Source: an uncultured Clostridia bacterium
GTDB lineage: Bacteria; Bacillota; Clostridia; Christensenellales; Borkfalkiaceae
Direction: 5' to 3'
DNA length: 64,000 nt
Assembly: GCA_947087265.1 (NCBI GenBank)
Contig: CAMUBY010000007.1
Location: 2,758 to 66,757, forward strand
In this document: one piece after another, positions 9,859 through 50,772 of the stretch
Position numbering within the stretch: the first letter of the stretch is position 1
Layout of the letters: each line of letters starts with the position of its first letter
The notes under the pieces: generated by a model
Databases searched by the model: none
What the model was told of the DNA's origin: nothing
Seen by the model: only the letters and a program-made list of their open reading frames with translations
Translations under genes and position numbers: made by a program

Positions 9859-10644
9859 TTACAGAAACCGCTCGTCCGTGAACAAATTTGCGCGAACGTT
9901 CGACTCCTTCAATAATTTCAAAAATTTTTGATAAAAACGGTTAAACCCGTAATATTCCGCCGCATAATGGGTGAGCAGCACCACGTTTACGCCCTTTTCA
10001 AAAAGCTCTTTGATAAGGTGATGCTTGCCGTCCGAAGAAACAAAGGTATCCGCACCGCTTTCGAGCGCAAACGAAACCGCTTCCGAGCTCATTCCCGCGC
10101 CGCAAAAACTTGCAACTTTCTTCACCGCTTTATTGCCGTATGCAACAATTTTATCCGTAAAAAACGTTTCACGCAGTTCCGCGATAAAACCGTTCATCGG
10201 CGTTTCTTTCCTGCTGCTTATTTTTCCGTATCCGCCTTGCGTAAGCGGTTCCATTACCTGCTCCGCAGTGCCGTTTGTAAGCCCTTTCATAAGGCAGTCG
10301 TCAATACCGCCCGAAGCACAGTCCAGATTCAAATGCGCCGAAATAACGGAAATACCGCTCTTTGCACATTCGAGAATTTCGCTACCCGCGCCCTCTTCCT
10401 GCAAAGAAGTGAGCGACCCGAAAATAGCGGGGTGGTGCGTGATAATGCAGTTTGCACCCAATTCCTTTGCCTTTGCGATTGCCGCTTTGCTCAAATCGAG
10501 CGAAAACAACACGTGCTTGATTTCTCCGCCGCAATCGAGTTGAATGCCGCTGTTGTCGTAAGCGTTGTATTTTTCGCAATATTCTTTGGAGAGCGCGAAC
10601 GGCGCAAGCGAATCCGCCATTTCATAAATCGTCTTCAAATACAT
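9859..10644 (-). CDS. Nif3-like dinuclear metal centre protein (YqfO family)
   Basis: ITHHP motif near residue 70, C-terminal LTHYAAE, and the trmK-nif3 gene pair typical of Firmicutes. Confidence 0.85.
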   Translation of the reverse strand: MYLKTIYEMADSLAPFALSKEYCEKYNAYDNSGIQLDCGGEIKHVLFSLDLSKAAIAKAKELGANCIITHHPAIFGSLTSLQEEGAGSEILECAKSGISVISAHLNLDCASGGIDDCLMKGLTNGTAEQVMEPLTQGGYGKISSRKETPMNGFIAELRETFFTDKIVAYGNKAVKKVASFCGAGMSSEAVSFALESGADTFVSSDGKHHLIKELFEKGVNVVLLTHYAAEYYGFNRFYQKFLKLLKESNVRANLFTDERFL

Positions 10645-12348: not shown

Positions 12349-14144
12349 ATTCTTCCTCCGATGCGAATGTTTTTCATTTTTTTCGTATAATCGTCTATTC
12401 GCGCGAGTATTTCGCGCTTTTCTTCCGTCGTTTTAGCCGTGGCGAGTTTCTCCGTTTCGGCGGCTTTTTTGTCCGCTAAGGTCTGCCGCTGTAAAGTTGC
12501 TATGCTGTCAGAAAAGTACTGCCTGCCCTCTTCGCTGTCGAGGTTGTCGCCGTAATCGAGATTAAGTACTTCCGAAAGTTCCGCCGAGTCCGAACCCAGC
12601 ACGTCGAAAATACCGCTCGGACGTACTTCTCCAGATTTTCTGCTTTCCGTGATATATTCGGCAATCGCACGATGTTCTTCTTCCTGAAATTCGATTTGCG
12701 TCAAGTCGAAACTCTGCGCGTAGGGTTTGGAAAGCAGACACGCCGCAAGCACAAACCGCGCCGCTTTTTTCACGCCCCAAACGTTCTCTTCTTTTACTGG
12801 CACAGCCTTCACGGGTACGGGAGCGGCAACCGCAGGCGCCGCTTCCAAATCCCTTAACAGCGAAGAAAGCGTAACGCCCGAAATGTCCGACAGTTTTTTC
12901 AACAGTTCTTCGCGTTCGGTCGCGCTTTCCGCTTCCTTTACGATGGGCAGCGCCTCGCGGATAAAATCGCGCTTTTCGTCCGTCTTGTTTAAGTCGTACT
13001 TCCTCTGTGCGGCAAAAATGCGGTAATCGATGAGCGGCATGGCGTTATCGAGGCACTTCTGATACCCCTCCGCGCCGCGTTTCTGAATCACGTCGTCGGG
13101 GTCTAAGCCTTCGGGCATGGGCACTACGCGCACCTTAATGCCCTCCTGCTTGAAAATATCCAGTCCGCGCAAATTCGCTTTCTGCCCCGCGAAATCGCCG
13201 TCGTAACTGATAAACACGTTTTCGGAATACCGTTTGCACAGCCTTGCCTGTTCTTTGGTGAGCGACGTGCCCATACTCGCCACCACGTTATGAAAGCCGG
13301 CTTCGTAGAGGGAAATGGCGTCCATATACCCCTCTACCATAATGACGGACGACAGCCCGCCCGCGCGTTTTTCCTTTTTCACGAGGTTGATATTGTATAA
13401 ATTTTTGCTCTTGTTGAAGAGGAGCGTTTCGCGCGTGTTCTTGTATTTGGCGCGGTCGGCTTTTTCGAGCAGCCGTCCGCCGAAGGCAATCACTTCGTCC
13501 ATGTGATTGATAACGGGGATAATCAGCCGACCGCCGAGCGAGTCGAAAATCCTCCCCTCGTCGGTTTTGGCACAAACGCCGCTCTCGACGCATTCTTCCG
13601 CCGTATACCCCTGCGCGAGCAGGTGAGCGGGCAGGGCGTTAAAATCGAGCGACGCGCCTATCCCGAATTTTTTCATGGTCGATTGCGACACCCGTCTCTT
13701 CGCTAGGTATGCAAGATGCGGTTCCGCGCGCCCCGAATAGAGGTTGTTAAGATAAAACCGCGCCGTATCTTTTAAGAGGCTCAAAAGTCTGTCGCGCTTA
13801 CGTTTTTTCTCGGCGGTCTCCTCGGCGGAGCGGCCGTCATACGCAGGTACTTCCAATCCCGCGCGGGCGGCAAGAATCTGCACCGCTTGCGCGTAGTCTA
13901 CGTTTTCATAGTTCTTTACAAAGGTGATGACGTCGCCCGATTCCGAGCATCCGAAACAGTGGTAATACTTGTCCGCCGCGTTAATATGGAAAGAAGGCGT
14001 ATTTTCATGATGAAAGGGACAACACGCCCAATAATCGTAGCCCCTGCGCTCCAATTTGAGGTAAGAGCCGATGACGTCCACCAAGTCGTTTTTCTCTTTG
14101 AGTACGCGTATGAATTCCGCGTACTCCGAATTCTGCATTCTCAT
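12345..14144 (-). CDS. dnaG: DNA primase
   Basis: Zinc-binding [14 protein letters not shown]...CFGC, TOPRIM EGYMD...DGDFAG, and the dnaG-rpoD operon order. Confidence 0.95.
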
Positions 14145-15246: not shown

Positions 15247-15948
15247 CTAAATTGCAAAACCGCCGTTTACGCAAAGAATCTGCCCCGTAATGTAGGTCGC
15301 CTCCGCAAGAAACAGCACCGCGCGCGCCACTTCCTCCGCCGTGCCGAAGCGGCCAAGCGGAATTTCCTCCGTGAGCGCCGCCGCCTCTTCTTCGGAAAGA
15401 TGCGCGTTCATTTCGGTACCGATAACACCGGGGGAAACGCAATTCACCGTAATGCCGCTCGGCGCAAGTTCCTTGGCAAGCGCCTTGGTGAAACTGTCAA
15501 CCGCGCCTTTGGAAGCGGAATAAACGCTTTCGCAACTCCCGCCCGTCTGTCCCCATACGGAAGAAATATTCACAATCGCGCCGCCTTCCCCGAGCATCTT
15601 TTTTACAGCATACTTTGTACAGAAAAACACGCCCCCCGCATTCACGTCCATCACGCGCCGATACTCCGCCTCAGTAGTATCCTGCACCTGTGCATAAAGC
15701 GCAACGCCCGCGTTGTTAACCAGCAAATCGAGCCGCGGAATAGTGTCAAAAACCGCTTTCACCGCCTGTTCGTCGCTCACGTCCGCCTGTACGAAATTTA
15801 CTTCGGGCAACTCCTTTTTGGCTTCCGATAAGCCGCCGCCCGCGGAATACAGCGCGGTCACAAGGTAATCGTGCCGTACCAACAGTTTACAGACTGCAAG
15901 CCCGATTCCGCGCGTTCCGCCCGTTACAACCGCCTGTTTCATGTTCAC
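15247..15948 (-). CDS. SDR-family oxidoreductase (FabG-like)
   Basis: TGGTRGIG cofactor motif, NNAG, and catalytic YSASK. Confidence 0.8.
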   Translation of the reverse strand: MNMKQAVVTGGTRGIGLAVCKLLVRHDYLVTALYSAGGGLSEAKKELPEVNFVQADVSDEQAVKAVFDTIPRLDLLVNNAGVALYAQVQDTTEAEYRRVMDVNAGGVFFCTKYAVKKMLGEGGAIVNISSVWGQTGGSCESVYSASKGAVDSFTKALAKELAPSGITVNCVSPGVIGTEMNAHLSEEEAAALTEEIPLGRFGTAEEVARAVLFLAEATYITGQILCVNGGFAI

Positions 15949-38231: not shown

Positions 38232-38717
38232 TTACATAATACTCGCTTTGATTTGTTTTAGTGCCGTTTTTTCAAGACGCGAAACCTGCGCCTGCGAAAT
38301 CCCGACTTCTGCGGAAATTTCCGTCTGCGTCTTTCCTTCGTAATAACGGAGAGTGAGAATTTTCCGCTCCCGCTCGGTGAGTCTGTGAATCGCCTCTTTG
38401 AGTGCGACGCGCTCCGTCCAGATTTCGTCCGACTGCGATTCGTCGCACAGTTGGTCGAGAAGTTGCAGCGTATCGCCCGATTTGTTGTATACGGGTTCGT
38501 ACAGAGAAACGGGGTCGGAAATCGCGTCTAACGCATAGACGACTTCGCGCTCCTGCACCTGCATTTCGTTTGCGATTTTCTGAATAGTCGCCTCTTCGTC
38601 GCGTTCTTCGATTGCCTCGCGGACTTTTAAAATTTTATACGCGGTATCTCGGATGGAACGGGAAACGCGCAGGGAATTCCCGTCCCGCAAAAAGCGTTTG
38701 ATTTCACCGAGTATCAT
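38232..38717 (-). CDS. sigG: 3' segment (residues ~96-256) of a split sporulation sigma factor SigG gene
   Basis: It begins MILGEIKRFLRDGNSLRVSRSIRD, the region 2.4 onward of SigF/SigG-type sigmas, and ends with the region 4.2 motif GISQAQVSRLEK. Regions 1.2-2.3 are missing here and are found at 47957..48253. Confidence 0.9.
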   Translation of the reverse strand: MILGEIKRFLRDGNSLRVSRSIRDTAYKILKVREAIEERDEEATIQKIANEMQVQEREVVYALDAISDPVSLYEPVYNKSGDTLQLLDQLCDESQSDEIWTERVALKEAIHRLTERERKILTLRYYEGKTQTEISAEVGISQAQVSRLEKTALKQIKASIM

Positions 38718-38741
38718 GGGAATAACGCTTGTATGTTGAAA
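38702..38741. repeat. Recombination junction (host half-site + GG core + element half-site with a 15-bp terminal inverted repeat)
   Basis: The plus strand reads tttcaccgagtatcatg GG aataac GCTTGTATGTTGAAA. The last 15 nt (38727-38741) are the exact reverse complement of 47949-47963. Confidence 0.8.
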
Positions 38742-38804
38742 ATTTATCCCGTTCAGTATATTTACTCTACCACAAAATCATAAAAAAATCAAGCATATAA
38801 ATAC

Positions 38805-38836
38805 GAAATACCCGCCGTCAGTGTCGGCGGATATTT
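38805..38836 (-). terminator. Terminator after the TIR-STAND gene, just inside the element end
   Basis: Stem cccgccg (38811-38817) pairs with cggcgg (38825-38830). A T-rich tract follows on the minus strand. It lies between the stop at 38876 and the att junction. Confidence 0.6.
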
Positions 38837-38875
38837 CATGTTCGGGAATTGACAGGCGTTTATAAAACACTTCGC

Positions 38876-41197
38876 TTATATGCCTATCGACTCCCAGCGT
38901 GGTATGGTTTTATCAAGTTCCAAAATATTTAATATCTCATACGTCTTTTTGGCATATTTGTCGGCTTCGGCCCGGTTGCCGAGTTTTGCGTTTGCAGTAG
39001 AAAGCATCCTGTACGACTGCGCGGCGTCGCGCTGCGTTTCGCCCACCGAGCCCGCAAAAAGTTCAAGCGCGGAGTGTGCGTAGTTGATTGCTTCGGAATA
39101 TTTTTTCATGCGTATACAGGCAAAAGCCATTGCGTTTATGCAACATGCCTTGGCAAAAGCGAACGAGCACTTTTCGCAAAATTCTATGCTTTTATTCAAG
39201 TAATCAAAACTTTCGTCAAATCTGTCGAGATGTGCAAGGTCAAGCCCGACGTTATAATGCGCCCATGCAAGTTCGGAATAGTTGTCGGGGAAGTGATTCG
39301 TGTCGATATCGACTTTTTTCATAAAATATCCGAGTGCTTTGTCGTATTCGGCATCCATCCAATAATACCAGCCGAACAGCGGCGAAAGCCAGGACGTGCG
39401 TTCCAACCTTTCCGATTCGGTAAAACCGTCTCCGCGTAAAATCCGCTCGGCTTCCGTCATATGTTTATACAGCCCTTCCCTATCCTCTTTGCACCTGTAC
39501 GCAGTACAAATCTCGATATGCGCTCCGTAGCGCTGCTTCGGACTTATCGAACCGCTAGCAAGATACTCGCCGAACACCCCGATAACTCTGTCGTGCCGCG
39601 AAAAATGCTGAAATACTTTTGCGGTCTCGGGCAGCCATTCCGCATACAATGCGGAAGAACGCGGCATAAATTTCAGCAAGCGTTCGGTAACGTACAGCAA
39701 CCATACGTTGCGGTCAAACGTTCCGAAACGCGACGACGGAAAATACATGGCCGCAAGCGAACGAACGAAATCCCCCGATACGTCGTCCTGAAAAGGCATT
39801 TTGGTCAAACATAAGTCTTGCACGATGGGGTGCAGCGATATGTAATCGGTAGCGTTGTTATGCAAAATCCAATTTTTACTGATGAGCGAGTCTATTTCGT
39901 CGTAGCTTTTCAGTTTGCACATATCGTAAAAATCCATTGCCTCCACCCCCGAAACGGGTACGAAAGCAAGGTTGTACAAAACGCGTTTTTCTTCTTCGCT
40001 CAGTCCGGCAAGATTAAACATATCGGTGATGACGTGCTTTGCTTTTTCTTGCCCGTCGTCTATGCTGTCGAGCACTTGTACCGTGCTTAGTTTCAAATGT
40101 TCGAGCATGTCGGCGGGGCGTATGCGCTTATCTTTCATCATAGTGGAAATAAGGCGGATAGAAAGCGTATGCCCCGAAAGCAGCCTAATCATTTCCATTA
40201 CGGTTTTTTTGTTTTGCCCGTCCAATTCACGCGGATAGCCCTTTGTAAAGAGTTCAAACAGTTCGTCGTCGTTGTCGATACAGTCGATTGCGTAATTATT
40301 GACGCTCCGCGCGATTCTCGTTGTAAAAATAATACTCATCGGCAGGGCGACAATCTCTTCAAAATACGGGTCGTTTTGCACGTTGTAGTCGTCTACGATA
40401 AGCAAATCGTCCTCTACCGCATTCTCGCGCAAAAATTCGTACTTGCGCTTATAATAAACGTTAACGTCCTCGTTGACGCCCTTGGAAAACCCGCTGATTC
40501 GCACGTTTGCGTCCGACACAAGCAAATCTTTCAAATCCGAGCCGTAAGTCGCCCACGAGACCGACCTGAATTCGTTGCGGAAATTCACCGCAAATTTGCG
40601 CACCGTTTGACTTTTGCCGATACCGCCCATACCGCTTACGAATATTTTTTTGTTGGTTTTCAGAAAATCGAGCAGCTCTGCCTGCTCGCGTTTTCTGCCC
40701 ACAAAATACGAAACGGGAGTGATTGCACTCGAAACAATGCGACGTTCGGCATCACTTGCCGTAAAATTGTTTAATACAAAATTAGATTTCGCATAAATTA
40801 CGCGTTCGCACAAATCATCGATTTTCTCGCCGATAGGCGGTTCTTTGCCGTTAATGCGGTGAAAGCGCCCCAAAAAATATTGCACCGTGTCGTTTACGGG
40901 ATAGTCATCCGTCTGAAAAATAATGAGTTCCATGCTCTTTTCCCTATAACGGTTAAACGCCGCATGAATTTCGTTTTTTACGTGCTCGGACTGCATGGAC
41001 CCCTTATTGATTATCAACAAAAATATAGACGCTTTGTTTAACGCCACCATGATGGCTTCATCGAAATTTCCTTCGCAATCACGGGGCGCATACCAGCACG
41101 ACACCCCTTTGCTTTCCAACTTTGTGCCGATTTCCGCCACAATTTCTTTCGCGGTGTTGGTATGGTACGAAATAAATACGTCTCTTTTGTCGTTCAT
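38876..41197 (-). CDS. TIR - NB-ARC/STAND P-loop NTPase - TPR protein (candidate anti-phage/abortive-infection sensor)
   Basis: The N-terminal TIR has DVFISYHTNTAKE...SEHVKNEI (conserved Glu). Walker A is VSGMGGIGKSQT and Walker B is LLIVDDYN. The C-terminal ~200 aa contain TPR-like repeats (AWAHYNVGLDLAHLDRFDESFDYLNKSIEF, AAQSYRMLSTANAKLGNRAEADKYAKK). An AGGAG RBS precedes the start. Confidence 0.85.
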   Translation of the reverse strand: MNDKRDVFISYHTNTAKEIVAEIGTKLESKGVSCWYAPRDCEGNFDEAIMVALNKASIFLLIINKGSMQSEHVKNEIHAAFNRYREKSMELIIFQTDDYPVNDTVQYFLGRFHRINGKEPPIGEKIDDLCERVIYAKSNFVLNNFTASDAERRIVSSAITPVSYFVGRKREQAELLDFLKTNKKIFVSGMGGIGKSQTVRKFAVNFRNEFRSVSWATYGSDLKDLLVSDANVRISGFSKGVNEDVNVYYKRKYEFLRENAVEDDLLIVDDYNVQNDPYFEEIVALPMSIIFTTRIARSVNNYAIDCIDNDDELFELFTKGYPRELDGQNKKTVMEMIRLLSGHTLSIRLISTMMKDKRIRPADMLEHLKLSTVQVLDSIDDGQEKAKHVITDMFNLAGLSEEEKRVLYNLAFVPVSGVEAMDFYDMCKLKSYDEIDSLISKNWILHNNATDYISLHPIVQDLCLTKMPFQDDVSGDFVRSLAAMYFPSSRFGTFDRNVWLLYVTERLLKFMPRSSALYAEWLPETAKVFQHFSRHDRVIGVFGEYLASGSISPKQRYGAHIEICTAYRCKEDREGLYKHMTEAERILRGDGFTESERLERTSWLSPLFGWYYWMDAEYDKALGYFMKKVDIDTNHFPDNYSELAWAHYNVGLDLAHLDRFDESFDYLNKSIEFCEKCSFAFAKACCINAMAFACIRMKKYSEAINYAHSALELFAGSVGETQRDAAQSYRMLSTANAKLGNRAEADKYAKKTYEILNILELDKTIPRWESIGI

Positions 41198-41242
41198 CTT
41201 TTGCTCTCCTCTGTTGATAACAATGCTTTTATTTGCGTTCTT

Positions 41243-41998
41243 TTACCGTTGTGGAAAAACCTCATGCAGTTGAAATTCCAAAACTTTTTTATACGGCGAA
41301 TCCTTTTCGTTTGCAAGCCATGCAAAAGCTGACGGAACGTTCAGACAAAATCCTTTTCCGAAGTATTCATACACTGCCCGATGCGACCCGCCGAACGGAC
41401 GGGCGGTCACCTTTTTCACATTCTCCGACACGGATAAGTGATGATTGCGGGAAGAATTTCCGTTCAGAAGTGATTTGCCGTTATCGAAAATCGGAGCCGA
41501 ACGATAATTCCCTTCCCCGTCCATAATAATGCCTAAATTATGAAAGTGCCTGTCTTCGTTGAGAATGATATAATCGAGCGTAAACACCTTTTTGAAATAA
41601 TCGAACAAATCAAGCCCTGTAACTTCCTTTACAAAACGCAGAACAAACGCAACTCTGTTCTGAATATCCGAATATCCCTTGATTGCTTCATATAACGGAA
41701 CGCCGGCAACGTTTGTATATAACCGTTCCAAAGTAATAAACGACTCGTCGGCGCCTAAAAAATTCTTACTCCGACAGCCCTTTCTGCCGTTAATTTTTCC
41801 CTGCTCGTAAATAACGTACTCGTTCGGGCGCAAATCGGAAAAATTCAGCAACTGCGAAACAAGATATTCCACTTCCCCTTCGCGCTCGACGTTATCTTCC
41901 TTATACCAATAGCCCTCGTGAAAATACTTTAACTGCGTTCCGTCGCTCGTACCTTGCGTATCGACAAGAAATTCTTCCCCGATTTTGATATCAAACAT
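41243..41998 (-). CDS. HipA C-terminal-like Ser/Thr kinase domain protein (stand-alone, HipT-like)
   Basis: DYIILNEDRHFHNLGII matches the HipA catalytic N-x-D-x-H-x-x-N loop and is followed by APIFDNG. At 251 aa it lacks the HipA N-terminal domain. It overlaps the upstream HTH gene by 8 nt. Confidence 0.7.
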   Translation of the reverse strand: MFDIKIGEEFLVDTQGTSDGTQLKYFHEGYWYKEDNVEREGEVEYLVSQLLNFSDLRPNEYVIYEQGKINGRKGCRSKNFLGADESFITLERLYTNVAGVPLYEAIKGYSDIQNRVAFVLRFVKEVTGLDLFDYFKKVFTLDYIILNEDRHFHNLGIIMDGEGNYRSAPIFDNGKSLLNGNSSRNHHLSVSENVKKVTARPFGGSHRAVYEYFGKGFCLNVPSAFAWLANEKDSPYKKVLEFQLHEVFPQR

Positions 41999-42569
41999 AT
42001 CTGTTCCTCGTTGCTACGTCCGCCCAAAATAATTGTTCCCCGTCAAATTGAAACCAAAGAAAATCATTATAGGAAACCCCGTGCGTCTTTTTTACAATCG
42101 ATAACGGGTCGTAATGGGCAATTCCGAGTTTTTGCAGAATCTGTGCCAATCCGTCGCGGTTTTCTTCCCAGCACCGCCGTTTCAAAATTTCGGAAAGCGC
42201 CACAATGTCCATTTTTTCTTGATTAAAAATCTGCTTTACAGGGTGCTGAACAAACCTCTTGACGCGCACGACCGAACCGCTCACATAAAACTCGGATACA
42301 GGCTCGTCTTTCCAATAACAAATAGCGTGTAACCCGTCCCAGCGTTTCAGATAGTCGGGGCGGACGTCGCTTTCTTTGATTGCAAATTCCAAGGACAATG
42401 CCTCTGCAAGTTTTTCAAGCGTCGCCAAGTTCGGATTCACCTGTCCGCTTTCGATTCTTCCGATTGTAGATTGCGGAATACCGCAAAGCCTTCCAAGTTC
42501 GGCTTGGGACATTCTCCGCTTTTTCCGTTCCCGAATCATTTGATTTAGTAAAATGCTTTTCGTTGCCAT
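41991..42569 (-). CDS. XRE-family HTH protein with an extra ~125-aa C-terminal domain (candidate HipB/HipS-like partner)
   Basis: The HTH is MSQAELGRLCGIPQSTIGRIESGQVNPNLATLEKLAEAL. An uncharacterised C-terminal domain follows. It is translationally coupled to the kinase gene. Confidence 0.7.
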   Translation of the reverse strand: MATKSILLNQMIRERKKRRMSQAELGRLCGIPQSTIGRIESGQVNPNLATLEKLAEALSLEFAIKESDVRPDYLKRWDGLHAICYWKDEPVSEFYVSGSVVRVKRFVQHPVKQIFNQEKMDIVALSEILKRRCWEENRDGLAQILQKLGIAHYDPLSIVKKTHGVSYNDFLWFQFDGEQLFWADVATRNRYV

Positions 42570-42645
42570 ATTGCTTCACCATTATCATAATAGCACAAAT
42601 GCTATTATTTGTCAAATGGTTTGCAAAAAATAATATCTTAAAAAG

Positions 42646-44124
42646 TTAATTTTGGTTCAATACAATTTGCTCGTATTGCGTCTTATTCAGAACAACTTTC
42701 ATACGACCCGACGTAAGCACTACGCGCTCGACAAGTTCCCGAATAATATTTTGTTTTTCAACGTCCGTCATGTTCCGCCAAGTGTCGGGAAGCGTTCTGA
42801 GCATTCGTTCCTGCTCTTCGATTTTTCTCGCAATCGTCTGTTTTTCCTGTTCCTCCGCCATATCCCGCTCTATGCGTTTTCTGTCTTCGTTGAGAGTCCC
42901 CGCCTGGTCGAGCAATTTTTCATCGCCCAACTTTTTGTAAGCGTGAATTAGCCGATTGTATTCGATGTCTAATGCGTCGATTCTTTTTTGTAACCCTGCA
43001 ATAATATCTTCTCCGTTCATAACGCGGTATTTTAACTCATCGCGGTATTTCACGGCAAATTCCATAATCGTGCCGATAACCGCCTGCTCCACTTCTTCCG
43101 CATCGTAAACGATATTCGGACAATTAGAATCTTTCACCAAATAATGCTTGGTGGAGGGATACCTGGAATAACACAAAATTTTCAACGTTTGTTTCTTGCC
43201 TCTCCCCCATTTCATGTAACGCATTTTTGCGCCGCAGTTACCGCAATAAACGAGTGAGGATAAAAGATAATGCGAATCTCCGCGTTTAGCCTTTCGTTTT
43301 TGTAAAATTTCCTGTGCTTCCTTAAAAGTTTCTTCATCGATAAGCGGCGCGTGTTTGCCCTGATACTGTTCTCCGCGGAAAGTGATTTCACCGAGATACG
43401 TGCGGTTTTTTAGGATACCGAAAACAACCACGTCGCTGGAAAGCCCCAACCGTTCTGCAATTTGCCTCGGAGAATATTCGTTTGTATTATACAGTTCAAA
43501 AATCTTTCTGACTATCGGCGCTTTTTCGGCGTCGGGAATCAGATTATTTTCAGCCTTTGAATAAATATACCCGAACGGAGCAATACCTCCCCCTTTCCAA
43601 AACCCGTCTAACGCACGCTGCCTTCTGCCGAGCGTCAGTTTTGATACGATTGCGTCGTGGTCAAACTCCGCGAAAATGGACAAAATCGAAATCAAAATTC
43701 CGTAAGTTTGTTTGCTTCGGGAATCGATACTGTTCTTCAATGCCAGATACTCGCAACCCGCGCTGACGCACTTTTCTTTCAAAAAACGCAGAATCAGCAT
43801 TTGCGTTCTGCCGATACGGTCAAGGGTATAGGTAATAACCATCTTTATTTTACCCTTTTTCATGAGTTCCAACATTTTCTGATAAGCGGGTCTGTTTTCA
43901 TTCATTCCCGTATAGCCGTCGTCGATAAATACCACGGGATTACTCATTTCATAAGCCGTGCAGTATTTTTCGAGCGCAGCGTATTGAACGTCTAAACCGT
44001 AACCGTCTTTGGCTTGCGAATCCGTGGAAACTCTCAAATACAAAGCCGTAATGTTATCTAATTCATCGCCGATTTCGTCATAAATCGGATATGAAAATTT
44101 GATTTGTTTACTTGTTTCTTTCAT
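42646..44124 (-). CDS. Large serine recombinase (resolvase catalytic domain + recombinase domain + zinc ribbon + coiled coil)
   Basis: The catalytic ALYLRVSTDSQ motif is present. The recombinase domain shows GGIAPFGYIY. The zinc ribbon is CGNCGAKM...CPN. The C-terminal coiled coil includes RIDALDIEYNRLIHAYKKLGD. The architecture matches SpoIVCA/SprA/phage integrases. Confidence 0.9.
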   Translation of the reverse strand: MKETSKQIKFSYPIYDEIGDELDNITALYLRVSTDSQAKDGYGLDVQYAALEKYCTAYEMSNPVVFIDDGYTGMNENRPAYQKMLELMKKGKIKMVITYTLDRIGRTQMLILRFLKEKCVSAGCEYLALKNSIDSRSKQTYGILISILSIFAEFDHDAIVSKLTLGRRQRALDGFWKGGGIAPFGYIYSKAENNLIPDAEKAPIVRKIFELYNTNEYSPRQIAERLGLSSDVVVFGILKNRTYLGEITFRGEQYQGKHAPLIDEETFKEAQEILQKRKAKRGDSHYLLSSLVYCGNCGAKMRYMKWGRGKKQTLKILCYSRYPSTKHYLVKDSNCPNIVYDAEEVEQAVIGTIMEFAVKYRDELKYRVMNGEDIIAGLQKRIDALDIEYNRLIHAYKKLGDEKLLDQAGTLNEDRKRIERDMAEEQEKQTIARKIEEQERMLRTLPDTWRNMTDVEKQNIIRELVERVVLTSGRMKVVLNKTQYEQIVLNQN

Positions 44125-44266
44125 TTTTTCTCGGCTTCGTTTGCTTGTTTCTGTAATACACTCTGTTTACGATTTCGCTGACAAGCGGGCTCACGCAAAT
44201 ATACTTCTTCACGTCCTCCGAAGTAAGTTCTTCTTCCCCCATATATACCGTTATTTTTTCTACCAT
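44108..44266 (-). CDS. Unlisted 52-aa ORF overlapping the recombinase start (candidate accessory/directionality factor or leader)
   Basis: Read by hand: GAGGGGGGAG RBS, then ATG (44266), encoding MVEKITVYMGEEELTSEDVKKYICVSPLVSEIVNRVYYRNKQTKPRKNERNK. Its stop overlaps the recombinase ATG region by 17 nt. It is below the 60-aa ORF-track cutoff. Confidence 0.4.
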   Translation of the reverse strand: MVEKITVYMGEEELTSEDVKKYICVSPLVSEIVNRVYYRNKQTKPRKNERNK

Positions 44267-44324: not shown

Positions 44325-44362
44325 AATAAAAAAGCGGCTACGGTGAACCGTAGCCGCTTTTG
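44325..44362 (-). terminator. Strong rho-independent terminator separating the AT-rich module from the recombinase module
   Basis: A 13-bp stem, aaagcggctacgg (44331-44343) pairing with ccgtagccgcttt (44348-44360), has loop tgaa. A T-run follows on the minus strand. Confidence 0.85.
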
Positions 44363-44381: not shown

Positions 44382-45086
44382 CTATTTGTCAAATTTTAAG
44401 ATGTCGTCCATAACATACAAAAATTTTCCGTTCCCTAATGAATACTCTTCATATCTAAAAACGAAAATATCATATTTTTCACTTTCGATTTTCGCCTGAC
44501 ACTGTATCAAGTTTATTCCGGTATCGGGGGCGAGAGCGATTTGCTGTTTATAATTAATAGAAAAATCAGGATATGTTTCCGACACAAAACTGCTGTCTGT
44601 TTCAAAATCTTTATAGTCGTATTTTTGATTAACGACTATCATTAACTCTAAACTATAATAGACTTCTATATTCGCCACGTTTACGTTTAGCGAATAATAT
44701 AAATCATCTCCGCTTACGGAATCGTAATATCTTTTAACCGTTGAAACGTTCTCTTCCGAAAGATTTAACATCAGATTTTTGAGCGCGCCCGACAATTCCG
44801 CAAAATCCGACTCGACCTGAACGAAATTGCTTTCGTCATAATAATTGTCATCCAAATTATTATTTGCAAACGGGACTAACTCAATCAGCAATACCGCAGC
44901 CACGGCGCAAGCCACCACTGCCGACGGAATCGCCCACACGAACTTGTTTCCGTTCCTCTTCGACCGGGAGCGGTTCTCTTCCTCAACAAAAAGTTCCAAA
45001 CGCTGTAAAAGTTCGTTGTCTTTGTCGGTCTGAATGGATTGTAAGTCCTTTTCTGATTCTTTTTTTAAGAATTTCTTTGTATTCAT
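44382..45086 (-). CDS. Single-pass membrane protein (possible anti-sigma/sensor partner of the ECF sigma)
   Basis: Charged N-terminal ~45 aa, one TM helix (FVWAIPSAVVACAVAAVLLIELVPF) and an extracytoplasmic C-terminal domain. It is the last gene of the XRE-sigma-peptidase string. No recognisable zinc anti-sigma motif is present. Confidence 0.55.
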   Translation of the reverse strand: MNTKKFLKKESEKDLQSIQTDKDNELLQRLELFVEEENRSRSKRNGNKFVWAIPSAVVACAVAAVLLIELVPFANNNLDDNYYDESNFVQVESDFAELSGALKNLMLNLSEENVSTVKRYYDSVSGDDLYYSLNVNVANIEVYYSLELMIVVNQKYDYKDFETDSSFVSETYPDFSINYKQQIALAPDTGINLIQCQAKIESEKYDIFVFRYEEYSLGNGKFLYVMDDILKFDK

Positions 45087-45090
45087 AATC

Positions 45091-45888
45091 CTAATAAATA
45101 TTTATTGCATATGCGTCGTCGATGTTTGTTTTGTAATCGATATCATAATATCCGTTGGATTTAAATGGATAACCCGATGCAACCGTTATGTATTGATAGA
45201 AAGCGCTTCCAGACGAACTTAATTCGTAACTGGTTTCTCTGTAACCGAACCCCACCATCACGTGATTGCCGGTAGATTCATAATAATAGATTGAATCAGT
45301 GTTTTCATCTGTATAAATATCAGCTACATTATATCCGCCGCAGAACAGAACGATAGGTTGGTTATATTCCATAAATGCTTTCGCCAAAGCATAATCGAAT
45401 TTTTTATTTTTCATAACGGAAGTAAAACTGATGCTCTTACCCATTCTGTTGCAGTAAGCAATCATTCCGTTCGTAAATTCTCTGACTGTTGTTCCGTCGT
45501 CGTCCGTCCCCATATCATTGTATAACTGCCTGACCACTTCGGTAACGGCATCGCTTGCGCTGTTATAAATAAACTGACCTTGGAACACAAATCCCGAAGT
45601 ATGGTTGGGAATTAAATTTTCATCGTATCTGTCGAAATAACCGATGATATTCGCGCCCGCCGTACAAGCGCAGTCGCCTAAGCCGACACTCTCGGTATAA
45701 TTCGGATGTTTGAGTACCATTCTGTACTCGTTTTCGTCTTTATTTTCATAATTGACCCTAACGGTTGATGCCGCATAAGGGGACATTCCGTCGTCGCTGT
45801 AAGTACTTTCTTGCACGGCAATTCCGCCCATGAAGAAATTTGCACCGCCCATAATTGCCATTAAGGCAACAGCCAAAAATTGTTTCAT
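45091..45888 (-). CDS. Secreted papain-fold cysteine peptidase-like protein
   Basis: A signal-peptide-like N-terminus (MKQFLAVALMAIMGGANFF) is present. The candidate nucleophile is in GDCACTAGANIIGYFDRY and the candidate His in TGNHVMVGFGY. The start is moved to the ATG at 45888, 6 nt after GAGGTG. Confidence 0.55.
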   Translation of the reverse strand: MKQFLAVALMAIMGGANFFMGGIAVQESTYSDDGMSPYAASTVRVNYENKDENEYRMVLKHPNYTESVGLGDCACTAGANIIGYFDRYDENLIPNHTSGFVFQGQFIYNSASDAVTEVVRQLYNDMGTDDDGTTVREFTNGMIAYCNRMGKSISFTSVMKNKKFDYALAKAFMEYNQPIVLFCGGYNVADIYTDENTDSIYYYESTGNHVMVGFGYRETSYELSSSGSAFYQYITVASGYPFKSNGYYDIDYKTNIDDAYAINIY

Positions 45889-45942
45889 ACAATTCACCTC
45901 ATTTGTTTGTTATATTTATAGACGGAAAAATGAGGCGAATTG

Positions 45943-46443
45943 TTACAAATATTTTTTCAAAGTTTTATACGCTCTGCTTACTTTTGTGCGAATGCTTATG
46001 TAACTTATGTTGAATTCGTTTGCCAATTCTTTCAGGCTGTAACCTTCCCAATAATGTAAATATAAAATCTCCTGCGTTAAGTCATCTAAATTCAATAGCG
46101 CTTTTTTCACATCGATATTTATGATTGTATTTTCTATATCGAATTTTGCAGCCACTATTTCATTCAATTCGATTTCTTCATGCTTTCCCCTCAAAATATC
46201 AATTGTATAATTATCTGCTAACTTATATAACCACGTCGTAGGATACTCAACATAATCCGGGGTTTTCATTTCTAATAATTTCAGGAATATATCATGCGCA
46301 ATATCTTCAGGATTGATTAGTTTTCCAAAACGCCTTTGAATATGTGCCTTCAATTTCAAATAGTAGTCTTCGTAAATAGATTTTACTGCATATTTGTTAT
46401 ATTTAATTTTCCCGATTAAGTAATTAAACTTTTGTGCATCCAT
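45943..46443 (-). CDS. ECF-type sigma-70 family sigma factor
   Basis: Region 2 shows PEDIAHDIFLKLLE and region 4 shows LHYWEGYSLKELANEFNISYISIRTKVSRAYKTLKK. It is 166 aa. Confidence 0.8.
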   Translation of the reverse strand: MDAQKFNYLIGKIKYNKYAVKSIYEDYYLKLKAHIQRRFGKLINPEDIAHDIFLKLLEMKTPDYVEYPTTWLYKLADNYTIDILRGKHEEIELNEIVAAKFDIENTIINIDVKKALLNLDDLTQEILYLHYWEGYSLKELANEFNISYISIRTKVSRAYKTLKKYL

Positions 46444-46459
46444 AATACTATTAAAAAAT

Positions 46460-46801
46460 TCAGGTATTTAAGTAACTATCCACATGAATCATAACTGCTT
46501 CCTTTTGTCTCTTATTCAGTATCCGAAACTTATCTAAAAGCTGTTTTGTTTCCCCTGTTAAAACAGTGACTTCTTCTTCGTTACACAACAACTCCGCAAC
46601 AGTTATATCAAATGCGTAGCATAATTTTTCAATCGCTTCAAGGCTGGGCGTGTAATTTCTCGCCGAATACCAGTTACGGATACACGCTTCGGTTAATTCC
46701 GCTTTTTGCGCCAAATCATAAATAGACATGCCTTTGGCTATCATGAGTTCTTTGATTTTTTGCTTCACTTTTATAATTAAAACACTATTATTTGTAGTCA
46801 T
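46460..46801 (-). CDS. XRE-family HTH transcriptional regulator
   Basis: The HTH is MSIYDLAQKAELTEACIRNWYSARNYTPSLEAIEKLCYAFDITVAELL. Confidence 0.8.
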   Translation of the reverse strand: MTTNNSVLIIKVKQKIKELMIAKGMSIYDLAQKAELTEACIRNWYSARNYTPSLEAIEKLCYAFDITVAELLCNEEEVTVLTGETKQLLDKFRILNKRQKEAVMIHVDSYLNT

Positions 46802-47040
46802 CGTATTTTAATTATATCGCATATATTAAGAAAAAATAAGGAGTTATCGTTTTGTATTTTAATAATTATGCCTATGATATCATATCATATTTCAAAGCTA
46901 CAATCAAGAGAAAACCAACTCGGTTATTTTAACGCGTTTATTTCCCGTATACTATCCATGAAGCAGATAAAAACAAAAAAGCCATACAACTAACGTAAGG
47001 CTTTCTTAACTTCACAACAAGTTTGATATTAAAATAACCT

Positions 47041-47208
47041 TCATAATTTATGCCCCATCCTGCCGTCGCCAACGCTACTTTCGCCTTTGCCTAAACAATT
47101 CTCTTCACTGCACCCTTCCGTGTGCGAATCACAGCCACAAGTTTCGTCGCAGTATTCATCGCAATCTTTTTCAGGCTCATTGTCGTCTGCACAGAAAATA
47201 ATATGCAT
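47041..47208 (-). CDS. Unlisted 55-aa acidic, cysteine-rich small ORF
   Basis: Read by hand: AAGGAGG RBS 7 nt before the ATG (47208), encoding MHIIFCADDNEPEKDCDEYCDETCGCDSHTEGCSEENCLGKGESSVGDGRMGHKL. It has 7 Cys and many Asp/Glu. It is below the ORF-track size cutoff. Confidence 0.45.
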   Translation of the reverse strand: MHIIFCADDNEPEKDCDEYCDETCGCDSHTEGCSEENCLGKGESSVGDGRMGHKL

Positions 47209-47388
47209 TTTAATACCTCCTTGGTTTTTTTGCTTTACAAATTAAATATTAAAAATAATCTCTTGCATATTCACTTTTTTCAGTATTAAAGACGAGACAA
47301 ACAACGAAAATGTTACAAAAAAAGCAAAATTTTTTATCGATACAAATTTTACTGCTGGAGCATCGGTTTAGCGCCGAATGCAAAATAA

Positions 47389-47928
47389 TTATCTGATTTC
47401 CACTTCAATTTCGGTAATAATCTTTTGCTTTGACTTTTTGTACGGAGTAAGTCCGCAAACGGAAAGCAACTTTTCCCAGCGGGAAATTCCGTTCCGCCGC
47501 ATGATTGTCTGAATACAACAAATAAGTTTTCTATTCCTTCTTGCATTAAAGTCGGTTTTAGAAAACGGCTTCAAACGGTTATATTCCGCAATAAATTCTT
47601 CTAACGAAGCCCCTTTCGCGCATTTATGTATGCTTGTTCCTTGTGCATATTCCGTCGGATAAAACTGCTTCATCCAAGCGGTATAAGTCGTTTGGAAACG
47701 GTAGTCGAATATTTCAATATACGGAAGCCCGTTTTTCCCGAATTCCTTTGAGCTTGGCAGCCGACCGTTCTTTACAAGAAACTCGTCGATTGCCTTGTTA
47801 ATTCGTTCTTCCGTCCATTTGCACCGCGGATGAACACGGATATCAGAATTTTGTTTTTTTGCCGATTTGGGTTCGTTTTCTGCATCTGATTGCCCGATTT
47901 TCGCCGATAATGCCTGTTTTCTAGCCAT
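47389..47928 (-). CDS. 179-aa basic protein with two helical repeats, the first gene inside the element (candidate DNA-binding/recombination directionality factor)
   Basis: An AAGGAG RBS lies 7 nt before the ATG at 47928, which is only 21 nt inside the element terminal repeat. Two related segments are WTEERINKAIDEFLVKNGRLPSSKEF and SLEEFIAEYNRLKPFSKTDF...ISRWEKLLSVCGL. There is no room for its own promoter. Confidence 0.6.
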   Translation of the reverse strand: MARKQALSAKIGQSDAENEPKSAKKQNSDIRVHPRCKWTEERINKAIDEFLVKNGRLPSSKEFGKNGLPYIEIFDYRFQTTYTAWMKQFYPTEYAQGTSIHKCAKGASLEEFIAEYNRLKPFSKTDFNARRNRKLICCIQTIMRRNGISRWEKLLSVCGLTPYKKSKQKIITEIEVEIR

Positions 47929-47948
47929 AAACCGCTCCTTTTGAAGGG

Positions 47949-47988
47949 TTTCAACATACAAGCATATTTGGCACGGCATAGGTTGAAA
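47949..47988. repeat. Recombination junction (element half-site with a 15-bp terminal inverted repeat + GG core + host half-site)
   Basis: The plus strand reads TTTCAACATACAAGC atattt GG cacggcataggttgaaa. The first 15 nt are the exact reverse complement of 38727-38741. Confidence 0.8.
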
Positions 47989-48253
47989 ACTTTACGTTGA
48001 AATCGAGGTTAAAGTTGTCGATTGCCTTGATAAGCCCCACGCAGCCCGCCTGAAATACGTCGTCCGCGTTAGAATTCTTCGCCCAGAACCGTTTGACGAG
48101 CGAGAGCACCAACCGCATATTTCCGACGATAAACGCTTCGCGCGCTTTTTCGTCGCCCTTTTTCAGCCGCCTCATCAGTTCGTCGTTTTCCTTTGCCGAG
48201 AGCTTGGGAAGCCCCGACGTATCCACTCCGCAAATGACTACTTTCTGTAACAT
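47951..48253 (-). CDS. sigG: 5' segment (residues 1-95) of the split sporulation sigma factor SigG gene, plus 5 element-encoded codons and a stop
   Basis: MLQKVVICGVDTSGLPKL (SigG-type N-terminus), NMRLVLSLVKRF (region 2.1) and DDVFQAGCVGLIKAIDNFN...KFSTYAVP (regions 2.2-2.3) are followed by NMLVC-stop. A GGAGG RBS precedes the start. Confidence 0.9.
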   Translation of the reverse strand: MLQKVVICGVDTSGLPKLSAKENDELMRRLKKGDEKAREAFIVGNMRLVLSLVKRFWAKNSNADDVFQAGCVGLIKAIDNFNLDFNVKFSTYAVPNMLVC

Positions 48254-48399
48254 ACACTCTTACCTCCTATGTACACGCCTTAGATTAAGAGTTTTTGCAA
48301 AGGACGGAAATTTATGCGGAACCACAGAGTACCATTCGGAGGCATAAAAAATTTGTATTATTTTGCCGAAACGCCTCTCTTTTGCGCGAAAAAACCAGC

Positions 48400-48447
48400 A
48401 AATAAAAACAACCGCCGCCGAAAGTTTCGGCGGCGGTTGTTTCTTTT
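48400..48447 (-). terminator. Strong terminator between the lipoprotein/vWA operon and sigG
   Basis: Stem caaccgccgccg (48408-48419) pairs with cggcggcggttg (48427-48438). T-runs are present on both strands. Confidence 0.85.
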
Positions 48448-48453
48448 ATCCGA

Positions 48454-50772
48454 TTAAGATTTTTTCAGTTCGTAAAGTTTGGAATATCTGTCGGTTAACA
48501 TCAGTTTTTTGTCTACGGTTGCGGAGAAAGTTACGCCGAGTTCGTCGCCCGAAATTTTCTCGTCAAGAACAATCTTTCCCGAGGCAACGCTGTATGCGTA
48601 AACGGTTTCTGCGGGTTCCCCGTCCTTTACGGTATACACGATTGCAACCCTACCGCTCGTTGCGCCTTCGGATTCAGGCGTAAACGTCACCGAATACTGA
48701 TTCTGCGCGTTATCCTTCACGGAATAAGTGCCGCTCAATAATCCCGCGAAATCAATCTCTTTTACGGTAAAGGTAATCGTCGTTGAAACGGTAGGCTTTA
48801 CCGTAGAAGTCATTTTTACGCTGTATGTGCCTGCCGCCGATGCCGTGAACTTCCAATATTTCAATGTGGGGTCCGCCGCAATTTCGTCCGCCGCGGCGTC
48901 CGCGTCGGGCGGTGTGAGCGTGACGTTTGCCGTAACGCCCGAACTCAACTCGGCCGTATAAGCGCCGTTTGCGTACTGGTTGGGTTCACAGCTGAAATAC
49001 ACGGTTTCGCCGACGCCAATCGTCTTTTGCGCCGCAGTCGTTTCAAACTTGGTGAGCGGATTATACACGCGGGGCGTAAGCGAGGTAGGGTCTGAACCCG
49101 TGACGTCGAAATAAATTGTCTTCGTGGTCTTCGCCGTTGTAAAGACAAGTTTCATCGACCCGCCGCGCCGCGCTTCCACCAAACGGGTATTGCCGCCCAT
49201 ACCGAATACGTATAAATCATCGCCGTAGAACCAATTATGGCTGTTTTCTTTCTTTTTCGTGCCGTCGGTAACGAACAGCGGGTCGGTAGTAAAATCCGAA
49301 CCCTCGGGCAAAATATTTTTGAACGTAAGCGTTATCTGATTGGTATGCCCGCTGCTGCCTTCGTTGCCGCGATTGAATTTGATGGTGTCGCCGTCGTTTA
49401 TCTCTTTTCCGTTATAGAAAATCTGATAACTTTGCACCTCGCCCGTCTTTTCATCTTCGGTGATGAAGGGATTTTTTTCGGTACGCTTGCCCGCAACCTG
49501 CTGACAGGTAATTCTCCATTGGAAATCAGGCGATTCCTGGGTGGGAGACGTAACGCCCTCTGAATCGGTAACGAAATGGGAATACTTATTTTCCTCGAAA
49601 TCGCTTGAGAACCATGCTTTCTGCAATACGGTAGCCGATTCTATGAAGTAGGAATTACCGAGCTTAAATTCTACGTCCACCGTGAAGTAATAGTGTCTGT
49701 TCGCGCCGCCCGGATACAGATAACCGAACGAGAAGAAGAACTGCTGTTGAGAAAGTTCCGCGCCCTCCCGATAATCCTTGTTGGGATTGGTTTTGCCGAT
49801 ATCGTACATATCCGTTACAAGTTTCTCGATACCGTAAGCCGCTTTGTCGGAATCGAAATACCAGGGTCTGTAAAAAACGCCCTCCATCATTTCCGTACTC
49901 TTACGCGGGGATTCGTATTGCGAACCGTCGTAAAAATAAACAACGTCGATTTTATCATCCTTCATACTCGTGTGAAATTCACTGATGTAGCCGACATCGT
50001 CCTCTTTCACATAGGTGTAATTATCTCCGAAGCGGTAAGTATAATTGATGTTCGTCCACCCTTTATTGATGTAAGACGACGCCGTAGAGGTTCCGCTCAC
50101 CACATTGCTCTTGAAGAAATTGCCGAGAGAAAGCGCGTTTTGTACGGAGCTGAGATTCACCCCCGCAACCGTAACGGTGTAGGAAGCGCTGACCGCACCC
50201 TTTGAAACGGAAACGGTATAATTGCCCTCCGCCGTAAATACGTCGTCATACGCCGAACCGTATTCGGAAACCACTTCGAATCTGAGTGAGCGGAGCGAGG
50301 TAATTTCTTCATCAAATTCCTGCTTCTGCGCATTCTCGTACGTTCCCGTAACTTTGAGCCCTTCGTAAGAAATGCTTTCTCCGATTTGATAGTTGAGTTT
50401 CGCGTTTTCGGTATTTAACTTGAGCGCTTTCAACACGTTGTTGAAGTCGTTTACCATAATATAGTAAACTTCTTTCTTGCCCTGATAACTGACCGTTACC
50501 GCATAACTCCCGAGCGCGTTCATATCGAGCGAACTTTCGGGCTTCACGGTCGCCTCCGCCGTTACGTCCACCTTTTCGCCCTTACCGTTTTGCAGATAGA
50601 CTTTGAAACTTTCACCCGTCGTGAACTCGTCGCCGATATAAAACGCCGTTTTCTGTCCTTCGATGATAAGGCGCTCGCCCGATTCGTCACCGCACGCCAC
50701 AGGCAACACGCAGCCCAAACAAATAATGAAAGTAAGAGCAAAAGTCAATAATAATTTTTTAAGATTTTTCAT
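48454..50772 (-). CDS. Large lipoprotein with repeated beta-rich (Ig-like) modules
   Basis: The signal peptide with lipobox is MKNLKKLLLTFALTFIICLGCVLPVACG. Repeated Thr/Val/Tyr-rich beta segments (YTVSVS..SYTVTVAG, GTYSVKMTST) are present. It is the last gene of the MoxR/vWA operon. Confidence 0.6.
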   Translation of the reverse strand: MKNLKKLLLTFALTFIICLGCVLPVACGDESGERLIIEGQKTAFYIGDEFTTGESFKVYLQNGKGEKVDVTAEATVKPESSLDMNALGSYAVTVSYQGKKEVYYIMVNDFNNVLKALKLNTENAKLNYQIGESISYEGLKVTGTYENAQKQEFDEEITSLRSLRFEVVSEYGSAYDDVFTAEGNYTVSVSKGAVSASYTVTVAGVNLSSVQNALSLGNFFKSNVVSGTSTASSYINKGWTNINYTYRFGDNYTYVKEDDVGYISEFHTSMKDDKIDVVYFYDGSQYESPRKSTEMMEGVFYRPWYFDSDKAAYGIEKLVTDMYDIGKTNPNKDYREGAELSQQQFFFSFGYLYPGGANRHYYFTVDVEFKLGNSYFIESATVLQKAWFSSDFEENKYSHFVTDSEGVTSPTQESPDFQWRITCQQVAGKRTEKNPFITEDEKTGEVQSYQIFYNGKEINDGDTIKFNRGNEGSSGHTNQITLTFKNILPEGSDFTTDPLFVTDGTKKKENSHNWFYGDDLYVFGMGGNTRLVEARRGGSMKLVFTTAKTTKTIYFDVTGSDPTSLTPRVYNPLTKFETTAAQKTIGVGETVYFSCEPNQYANGAYTAELSSGVTANVTLTPPDADAAADEIAADPTLKYWKFTASAAGTYSVKMTSTVKPTVSTTITFTVKEIDFAGLLSGTYSVKDNAQNQYSVTFTPESEGATSGRVAIVYTVKDGEPAETVYAYSVASGKIVLDEKISGDELGVTFSATVDKKLMLTDRYSKLYELKKS

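Follow-up and report, generated by a model that had tools for sequence, protein, structure and literature searches.

The stretch of DNA analyzed here (the window) comprises 64,000 nucleotides (nt) of a contig from an uncultured Clostridia bacterium and contains, on its minus strand, a sigG gene divided by a 9.25 kb mobile element. We describe this element, its large serine recombinase and two small genes, X and S, that accompany such recombinases in related elements and phages. Coordinates are window positions and the features are read on the minus strand; L-numbers designate related loci and P-numbers related proteins. The features at the center of the analysis are as follows:

47970..48253, minus strand: sigG 5′ fragment, codons 1–95, ending ...FSTYAVP
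38232..38718, minus strand: sigG 3′ fragment, from Met96 (MILGEIKRF...)
47949..47971, minus strand: attL core, crossover CC (47971-47970) plus the attP P′ arm AAATATGCTTGTATGTTGAAA
38719..38741, minus strand: attR core, attP P arm TTTCAACATACAAGCGTTATT plus crossover CC (38720-38719)
47389..47928, minus strand: gene X, 179 amino acids, isoelectric point 9.7, with an N-terminal MARKQAL helix and two HNH_repeat-like helical units
47935..47940, minus strand: ribosome-binding site of X, AAGGAG, 6 nt before the ATG, as read from the sequence
44108..44266, minus strand: gene S, 52 amino acids, overlapping the recombinase start by 17 nt
42646..44124, minus strand: large serine recombinase, 492 amino acids (Pfam Resolvase, Recombinase and Zn_ribbon_recom; PHROG integrase)

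The 5′ fragment opens a reading frame of 100 codons, from the ATG at 48253 to a TGA at 47953-47951, whose end lies inside the element; an initial annotation of this DNA had placed the stop correctly at 47951. The 3′ open reading frame (ORF) encodes 161 amino acids (38717-38232). When residues 1–95 are joined to it, the resulting 256-amino-acid protein passes the NCBIfam SigG equivalog NF006071 (374.7 bits; cut-off 372) and falls far under the SigF, SigE and SigK cut-offs. The two junctions have only CC in common (47971-47970 and 38720-38719), which marks the crossover. Exact excision would bring back the sigG frame, and all related loci share this insertion site, every element cutting sigG after the Y-A-V-P codons (TAYGCNGTNCC). 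The terminal repeat reported earlier at 47949..47963 exists, as GCTTGTATGTTGAAA, but it is a 15-bp perfect inverted repeat of 38741-38727 and not a direct repeat; both copies are attP arms, and rejoining the element ends yields the palindromic attP TTTTCAACATACAAGCGTTATT-CC-AAATATGCTTGTATGTTGAAA. Exact scans of the JGI metagenomes for this attP joint and for the empty attB found neither.

The G+C content of the element is 32–48%, as against 48–55% in its flanks, and all of its genes lie on the minus strand. In order, they encode X, an XRE-type regulator, an extracytoplasmic function (ECF)-like sigma factor, two uncharacterized proteins, S, the recombinase, a helix-turn-helix protein, a HipA_C-like protein and a TIR-NB-ARC-TPR protein. 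The top NCBIfam match of the recombinase is XisF, at 126.6 bits; as this is well short of the cut-off of 375, the enzyme is not an XisF member. The recombinase gene of the relatives lies 150–200 nt from the sigG 3′ fragment, and in the window cargo genes occupy the interval between recombinase and attR. Since sigG encodes the late forespore sigma factor, the divided gene is not a mother-cell target of the kind used by the skin, SPbeta and gin elements.

Gene X at the element margin

The start codon of X, at 47928, lies 41 nt from the crossover. The initial annotation had put the gene 21 nt behind the junction; that distance runs from the ATG to the inner end of the att arm, and the true crossover is at 47971/47970. 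The gene itself, with its ribosome-binding site and start, is real, as the family alignment supports the ATG: the N terminus is MARKQAL in the window and MTRKQAL in relatives. A 196-amino-acid ORF that begins at 47979 was discarded as merely the longest open frame, since homologs start where the 179-amino-acid X starts.

A full HMMER scan of 1.84 billion representative sequences recovered 276 relatives of X at E≤1e-3, and a word-indexed protein search with X returned only X itself. Identity between the window protein and its aligned relatives is 24–30%. Most relatives contain 180–210 amino acids and share the near-invariant MTRKQAL start and two helical units, with a short hydrophobic strand at the C terminus; large proteins matching Pfam HNH_repeat contain as many as 15 copies of the first helical unit. 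The protein is basic, as had been noted, and the earlier comparison of its helical segments with repeats associated with homing endonucleases holds for part of the family: the multi-repeat relatives match PF18780 HNH_repeat strongly (64–134 bits; gathering threshold 26 bits), P0124, P0129 and P0150 reach 18–21 bits, and for X itself Pfam returned nothing at E≤0.01. The relation of X to HNH_repeat is one of divergent homology, and X does not qualify as a formal PF18780 member.

The AlphaFold2 model of X is all-helical, with a mean predicted local distance difference test score (pLDDT) of 81. Foldseek searches of the PDB with this model returned nothing under E=2, and the only weak fold matches were helix-turn-helix proteins or homeodomains. 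When PDB sequences were searched with profiles of X and S, noise alone resulted, and Pfam, PHROGs and NCBIfam contained nothing usable for either protein. A tblastn search of 50,697 deposited phage genomes with X and one phage-borne homolog gave no match.

The position of X is far better conserved than its sequence. When the X-family hidden Markov model was run over approximately 1 Mb of related loci, X was found only at sigG junctions or beside attP in free phages; it is present wherever the far margin of a sigG-inserted element is in view, and none was seen near related recombinases outside sigG. At the DNA level, a sigG 5′ fragment is followed by X on the same strand in L014, L039, L086-88, L090, L091 and L092-93. 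The distance from crossover to start codon is 41–52 nt in four lineages besides the window, including the same-strand loci read at sequence level (L014, L039 and L086), and since this spacing is kept across lineages, the absence of space for a promoter is itself conserved. Location beside the att site is a conserved property of the family and no chance feature of the window.

Nine predicted proteins (P0126, P0146, P0245, P0246, P0257, P0271, P0272, P0275 and P0278; 289–387 amino acids, labeled "sigma-70 region 2") consist of SigG residues 1–95, about 14 further residues and an X homolog, all in frame, which places X directly behind the same sigG breakpoint in those genomes. These gene calls are probably read-through artifacts of the junction. 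We considered and dropped the idea of a functional SigG-X chimera, as the fusion occurs at two of seven DNA-level junctions, about as often as chance predicts, and X retains an ATG and a ribosome-binding site of its own.

The element is found in sigG in two orientations. In L081 and L083-85, X adjoins the sigG 3′ fragment and points away from it, antisense to sigG, with the recombinase next to the 5′ fragment; the prophages L096-99 have the recombinase beside the sigG 5′ fragment in the same way as L083, their X end being out of view. The difference resides in the dinucleotide at the center of the site: read on the X strand, it is CC in the window and phage L089 and GG in L082 and L083. The CC orientation is found in the window, L014, L039, L086, L090, L091 and L092 and the GG orientation in L081, L083 and L096-99; the two are about equally common in the sample examined. 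In the unintegrated phages L082 (identical to L100) and L089, the recombinase stop, palindromic attP, ribosome-binding site and X start all lie within 72–77 nt, giving the module order S, recombinase, attP, X. Phage L101 has S, recombinase and attP with no X within 3 kb.

Several individual loci deserve mention. Two independent contigs, L094 and L095, start 73 nt before the X start, that is, at the att junction; such a break is expected if a sample mixes integrated with empty or excised forms. L083 is a 7.4 kb sigG element with a REP_ORF2-G2P (rolling-circle type) protein (12487-13290), a methylase and a Bsp6I-type restriction enzyme, and some family members may replicate as circles after excision. 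L039 is a 4.5 kb sigG element in which an internal deletion has removed recombinase residues 71–430 (10001-10380). The sigG halves, X and S are all intact in L039, and its host sigG is permanently split unless the deletion is an assembly error.

Transcription of X and S

If X has no promoter of its own, how is it expressed? Its transcription must be set by whatever lies across the att site. The elements that bear on this question, with promoter activities predicted from motifs, are:

48254..48405, minus strand: putative sigG promoter region, with a good forespore-type −35, GCATA, at 48317-48313, conserved in relatives, and a weak −10 match
48406..48442, both strands: bidirectional terminator of the upstream 772-amino-acid gene, 17-bp stem; upstream limit of the sigG promoter region
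44330..44361, both strands: strong bidirectional terminator, 14-bp stem, parting the upstream genes (X through the gene for a 234-amino-acid protein) from the S-recombinase unit
38803..38839, minus strand: terminator after the TIR-NB-ARC-TPR cargo gene
38764..38792, minus strand: weak outward promoter TTGATT-17-TGg-TAGAGT, detected by hexamer scan and under the threshold of the standard scan

A scan of 47000-48600 for minus-strand promoter-like sites found none, and no terminator-like site was predicted between 48253 and 47928. These scans bear out the earlier statement that neither a promoter nor a terminator separates the sigG start from X (47929-48253). A terminator-like site inside X (47486-47472) was dismissed, as it has six pairs and no real T-run. 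The sequence CG[CT]ATAAA is common to the sigG upstream regions of the window, L039 and L086, and the equivalent in L083 is GTTTA-15-GGCAATAATA.

The initial annotation held that X would be read from the sigG promoter only while the element is integrated, and that excision would disconnect the two and leave X silent in the circle. The geometry of the window, where the sigG promoter region is the sole one upstream of X, supports the first dependence and the disconnection, but in relatives with the GG orientation X is antisense to sigG. The terminator proposed at the far end was also found. Silence in the circle, however, is contradicted by the relatives. At 17 of 20 related ends within the recombinase clade of the window, a terminator after the recombinase is followed by an outward near-consensus extended −10 promoter of the type TTGNNN-17-TGnTATAAT, mostly TTGCAA-17-TGnTATAAT, located 44–71 nt before the sigG 3′ ATG. 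In free phage genomes, the recombinase gene runs through attP into X. The weak outward promoter of the window is at the same distance from the sigG 3′ ATG as those of its relatives and lies downstream of the terminator at 38839-38803. After excision, promoters at this position would read across attP into X.

The GG element L083 has two strong terminators upstream of X and promoter-like matches of only 9 of 12 positions. A sigG-sense terminator just inside the junction in L083 (17289-17303) shields the recombinase gene from antisense transcription. From this geometry we infer that in every lineage X belongs to the circular form and that, in the CC orientation, it additionally comes under the sigG promoter. 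The connection of sigG to X is not general and, because CC and GG are about equally common, is not strongly selected.

Gene S has a wider distribution. Of 39 related loci, 35 carry an S homolog immediately upstream of the recombinase, including loci whose recombinase is outside sigG, and homologs also occur in the distant recombinase clade of L083 and L089; S is homologous in every recombinase clade examined. In these two loci a strong sigma-A promoter is situated between S and the recombinase, preceded in L083 by a terminator (15603-15699), so the recombinase looks constitutive and S separately controlled. A sigma-F-like motif, G[TA]TT[ATG]-N14/15-GGnAAnnAT, is found 17–40 nt upstream of S in L002, L006, L014, L018, L036 and L089; in L082/L100 and L098/99 it is also present a short way upstream of the equivalent small ORF. 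The motif resembles the sigG promoter of L083. Its background frequency is 0.29 per kb per strand, or about 0.04 matches expected per 150 nt. The single-sequence structure model of S is poor (pLDDT 62). Because S co-occurs more widely with the recombinase and is frequently preceded by a putative forespore-type promoter, it is the stronger candidate for the directionality factor.

Possible roles of S and X

We propose that X would be a conserved accessory gene of an S-recombinase-attP-X module, carried by elements and phages that integrate into sigG after Y-A-V-P. In the excised circle, transcripts starting at the recombinase promoter, or at a separate outward sigma-A promoter serving X, would cross attP into the gene, and integration would cut X off from that promoter. 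In the CC orientation, as in the window, integration would also place X behind the sigG promoter, leaving it silent during growth and read through when this promoter fires in the forespore. S, more probably than X, would be the primary, developmentally regulated directionality factor, and X could act after or alongside excision, for example by controlling the return path of the circle, as a DNA-binding regulator or second cofactor. We favor this division of labor, with S as the main developmental factor and X dependent on integration state and acting with or after excision, only tentatively, and would put its probability a little short of even.

Several observations weigh against it. The sigma-F-like pattern was set after the data had been seen. 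The sigma-F consensus we used is, reportedly, that given by Haldenwang in 1995 and by Wang in 2006; published papers confirm the spacing of 14–15 nt. In the window, the motif before S is degenerate (GTTTA-15-GAGAAGAAAG), and the overlap of S with the recombinase gene, behind a strong terminator, means that the two would always be made together, which is awkward for a directionality factor. The outward promoter of the window is degenerate as well, so that the connection from sigG to X is the only clear developmental input in this element. Outward promoters may also serve another end, such as offsetting polar effects on host genes, like the SpyCI promoter, which acts on flanking host genes (PMC3430984). 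The role of X after excision is a conjecture.

Could X instead be the directionality factor, alone or together with S, as the initial annotation suggested? In that model, the sigG promoter fires in the forespore, X is made and triggers excision, and sigG is restored. X is encoded within the att boundaries of the recombinase's own element, 3.3 kb upstream of the recombinase, at the margin opposite to it and so flanking attP, as SprB is in SPbeta. It is retained in small elements without phage genes (the window and L039), and in the window the sigG promoter region alone lies upstream with no terminator between, while the overlap of S with the recombinase gene leaves no separate regulation of S. 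XisF, which the recombinase matches best in NCBIfam, depends on two accessory proteins, XisH and XisI, and X and S could both be required in a comparable way. Directionality factors also share no common fold or size (PMC12286644). However, in GG elements the integrated X, behind strong terminators and with 9-of-12 matches as its best promoters, could not trigger excision. Moreover, X is made with the recombinase in free phages and is strongly driven by sigma-A in the circles of relatives, where a canonical factor would block integration, and phage L101 has the rest of the module and no X nearby. The near-equal frequency of CC and GG further implies that the wiring to sigG is not strongly selected. 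X is probably not the main trigger of excision, and we consider this model rather unlikely.

A role of X outside recombination, as a DNA-binding regulator or as an entry-phase gene with an anti-defense, replication or host-modulating function, seems to us similarly doubtful. Under this explanation, the ancestral phage expressed X from the recombinase transcript, and its place behind sigG is a by-product of orientation. The occurrence of HNH_repeat-like units up to 15 times in large unrelated proteins, fold matches confined to helix-turn-helix and homeodomain proteins, the variable orientation to sigG and the variable defense genes in the neighboring cargo all fit such a role. Yet adjacency to the att arm is strictly kept across sequences as divergent as 24–30% identity, a sigG-targeting recombinase accompanies X in every context seen, and X persists in reduced elements; cargo is not usually held 41–52 nt from a crossover in all lineages. 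It is also conceivable, and in our view very improbable, that there is no developmental excision at all, either because the hosts do not sporulate or because the insertions just inactivate sigG, a conserved but dispensable landing site. The hosts are uncultured gut Clostridia represented by metagenome-assembled genomes labeled Christensenella, Borkfalkia and Gallimonas, which may or may not sporulate; the deleted recombinase of L039 leaves sigG permanently split; and neither attP nor empty attB of the window element was found in the JGI metagenomes. Against this, the sigG fragments remain open, with 50–87% protein identity to those of the window (20 loci for the 3′ fragment and seven for the 5′ fragment), and the rebuilt protein reaches the SigG equivalog cut-off, which implies continued selection on the intact gene. 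Forespore-type motifs before S are hard to explain without sporulation.

How do these elements compare with known developmental rearrangements? SPbeta, which is inserted in spsM of B. subtilis and uses SprA and SprB, likewise splits a sporulation gene by means of a large serine recombinase. Its sprA and sprB genes mark the two ends of the prophage and, once it circularizes, stand on either side of attP (PMC8270828), so that sprA-attP-sprB corresponds to the recombinase-attP-X layout of L082 and L089, and a constitutive recombinase is combined with a sporulation-specific promoter for the factor (PMC4191935). SPbeta differs in that its target is a mother-cell gene, excision happens only in the mother cell and the spore keeps the prophage, whereas the element described here divides a forespore sigma factor; in addition, SprB has its own promoter inside SPbeta and X has none. 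Neither X nor S resembled SprB in any search of this analysis. The skin element in sigK of Clostridioides difficile (CD1231/CD1234) also splits a sigma-factor gene, with the recombinase directly upstream of the 3′ half, and a small factor under a sporulation sigma factor sets the timing and cell type of excision (PMC5025042). It acts in the mother cell under sigma-E and SpoIIID control; none of its genes begins at an att junction, and transcripts crossing the junction have not been described. Like the window element, gin in gerE of Bacillus cereus (GirC and the 42-amino-acid GirX) is not a phage. Its very small factor and its recombinase are both induced in sporulation (PMC5595907), a parallel to an S-recombinase operon behind a sporulation promoter; unlike sigG, gerE is a mother-cell gene, we found no sequence similarity, and gin lacks a third conserved gene beside its att site. 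The S arrangement of L083 and L089 matches the design that SPbeta, skin and gin have in common, in which a small sigma-controlled factor is paired with a constitutive recombinase.

More distant parallels exist. The Anabaena fdxN element (XisF, XisH and XisI) undergoes developmental excision by a large serine recombinase, with cell specificity set by two accessory proteins; excision there takes place in a terminally differentiated heterocyst, and neither X nor S matched XisH or XisI in the NCBIfam scan. In active lysogeny, exemplified by Listeria phi10403S in comK and SpyCI in mutL, excision restores a host gene and the element must return, as the cell keeps dividing. Both phi10403S and SpyCI use tyrosine integrases; these switches are not linked to sporulation, and reintegration of the sigG elements is a conjecture. 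Finally, in the integration-dependent immunity of mycobacteriophages and the joint-spanning promoters of insertion sequence (IS) circles and Tn916, recombination joins or parts a gene and its promoter and so reports the integration state. The genes concerned there are repressor, transposase or transfer genes, whereas X is uncharacterized and can come under a developmental host promoter.

The family of sigG-splitting elements appears to be undescribed: a full-text search of the open-access literature found no paper on an element that interrupts sigG or any gene specific to the forespore. According to Abe et al., the known intervening elements lie in mother-cell genes, excise only there and are kept by the spore (PMC4191935). 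The characterized rearrangements, in sigK, spsM, gerE and others, take place in the dying mother cell, so that the spore retains the element without penalty. As sigG is needed in the forespore, which is the next generation, an element in this gene breaks that logic: either the host cannot sporulate with the element, or the element must leave and return. One speculative possibility, which we judge unlikely, is a germline cycle of excision and return. In this scheme, forespore sigma-F would drive S, and in the CC orientation the sigG promoter would drive X as well; the element would leave, sigG would be restored and the spore would mature with the circle. At germination, a sigma-A promoter across attP would drive X, which would help or license reintegration into sigG and be silenced by it. 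If true, this would be the first rearrangement of a sporulation gene in the cell that founds the next generation, and recombination itself would swap the promoter of one of the element's genes. Since the promoter of X changes with integration state, the germline survival of such elements is directly testable. Members of the family are spread widely among uncultured gut Clostridia and their phages and carry varied defense cargo, and the S-recombinase-X modules offer new sets of recombinase and cofactors with a defined 40–50 bp target.

Related recombinases outside sigG and element cargo

Recombinases 56–59% identical to that of the window, each with an S homolog, are found outside sigG in L009, L017, L019-L024, L026-L028 and L034. 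Several of them adjoin the 3′ end of asd. The motif CTATAAGTCGATTA occurs several times per locus, some copies lying in terminator loops, and inverted copies flank a 1.7 kb S-recombinase unit in L020, L027 and L034; these loci could belong to a separate recombination system that uses multiple sites. In loci of the L009 type, we considered and dropped a 5-kb element with CTATAAGTCGAT repeats at its ends, as one "repeat" falls inside a conserved AraC-family gene.

Between X and S, the region 44382-46801 of the window contains the XRE regulator, with a promoter-like site of its own (46907-46879), and the element-borne ECF-like sigma factor. The 268- and 234-amino-acid proteins encoded in the same region had no Pfam or PHROGs match.

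The interval from recombinase to attR (38876-42569) carries as cargo the pair of helix-turn-helix and HipA_C-like genes and the gene for the 773-amino-acid TIR-NB-ARC-TPR protein. Restriction-modification, GmrSD, Fic or PIN genes occupy the equivalent position in related elements, and this variety of defense genes marks the sigG site as a defense-island hotspot. Directly past the recombinase stop, at 42587-42615 on the minus strand, is a near-consensus promoter (TTGACA-17-TG-TATTAT; 11 of 12 positions) that now points at the cargo and occupies the place of the outward promoter of the relatives. The cargo may have been inserted between an ancestral outward promoter and attR.

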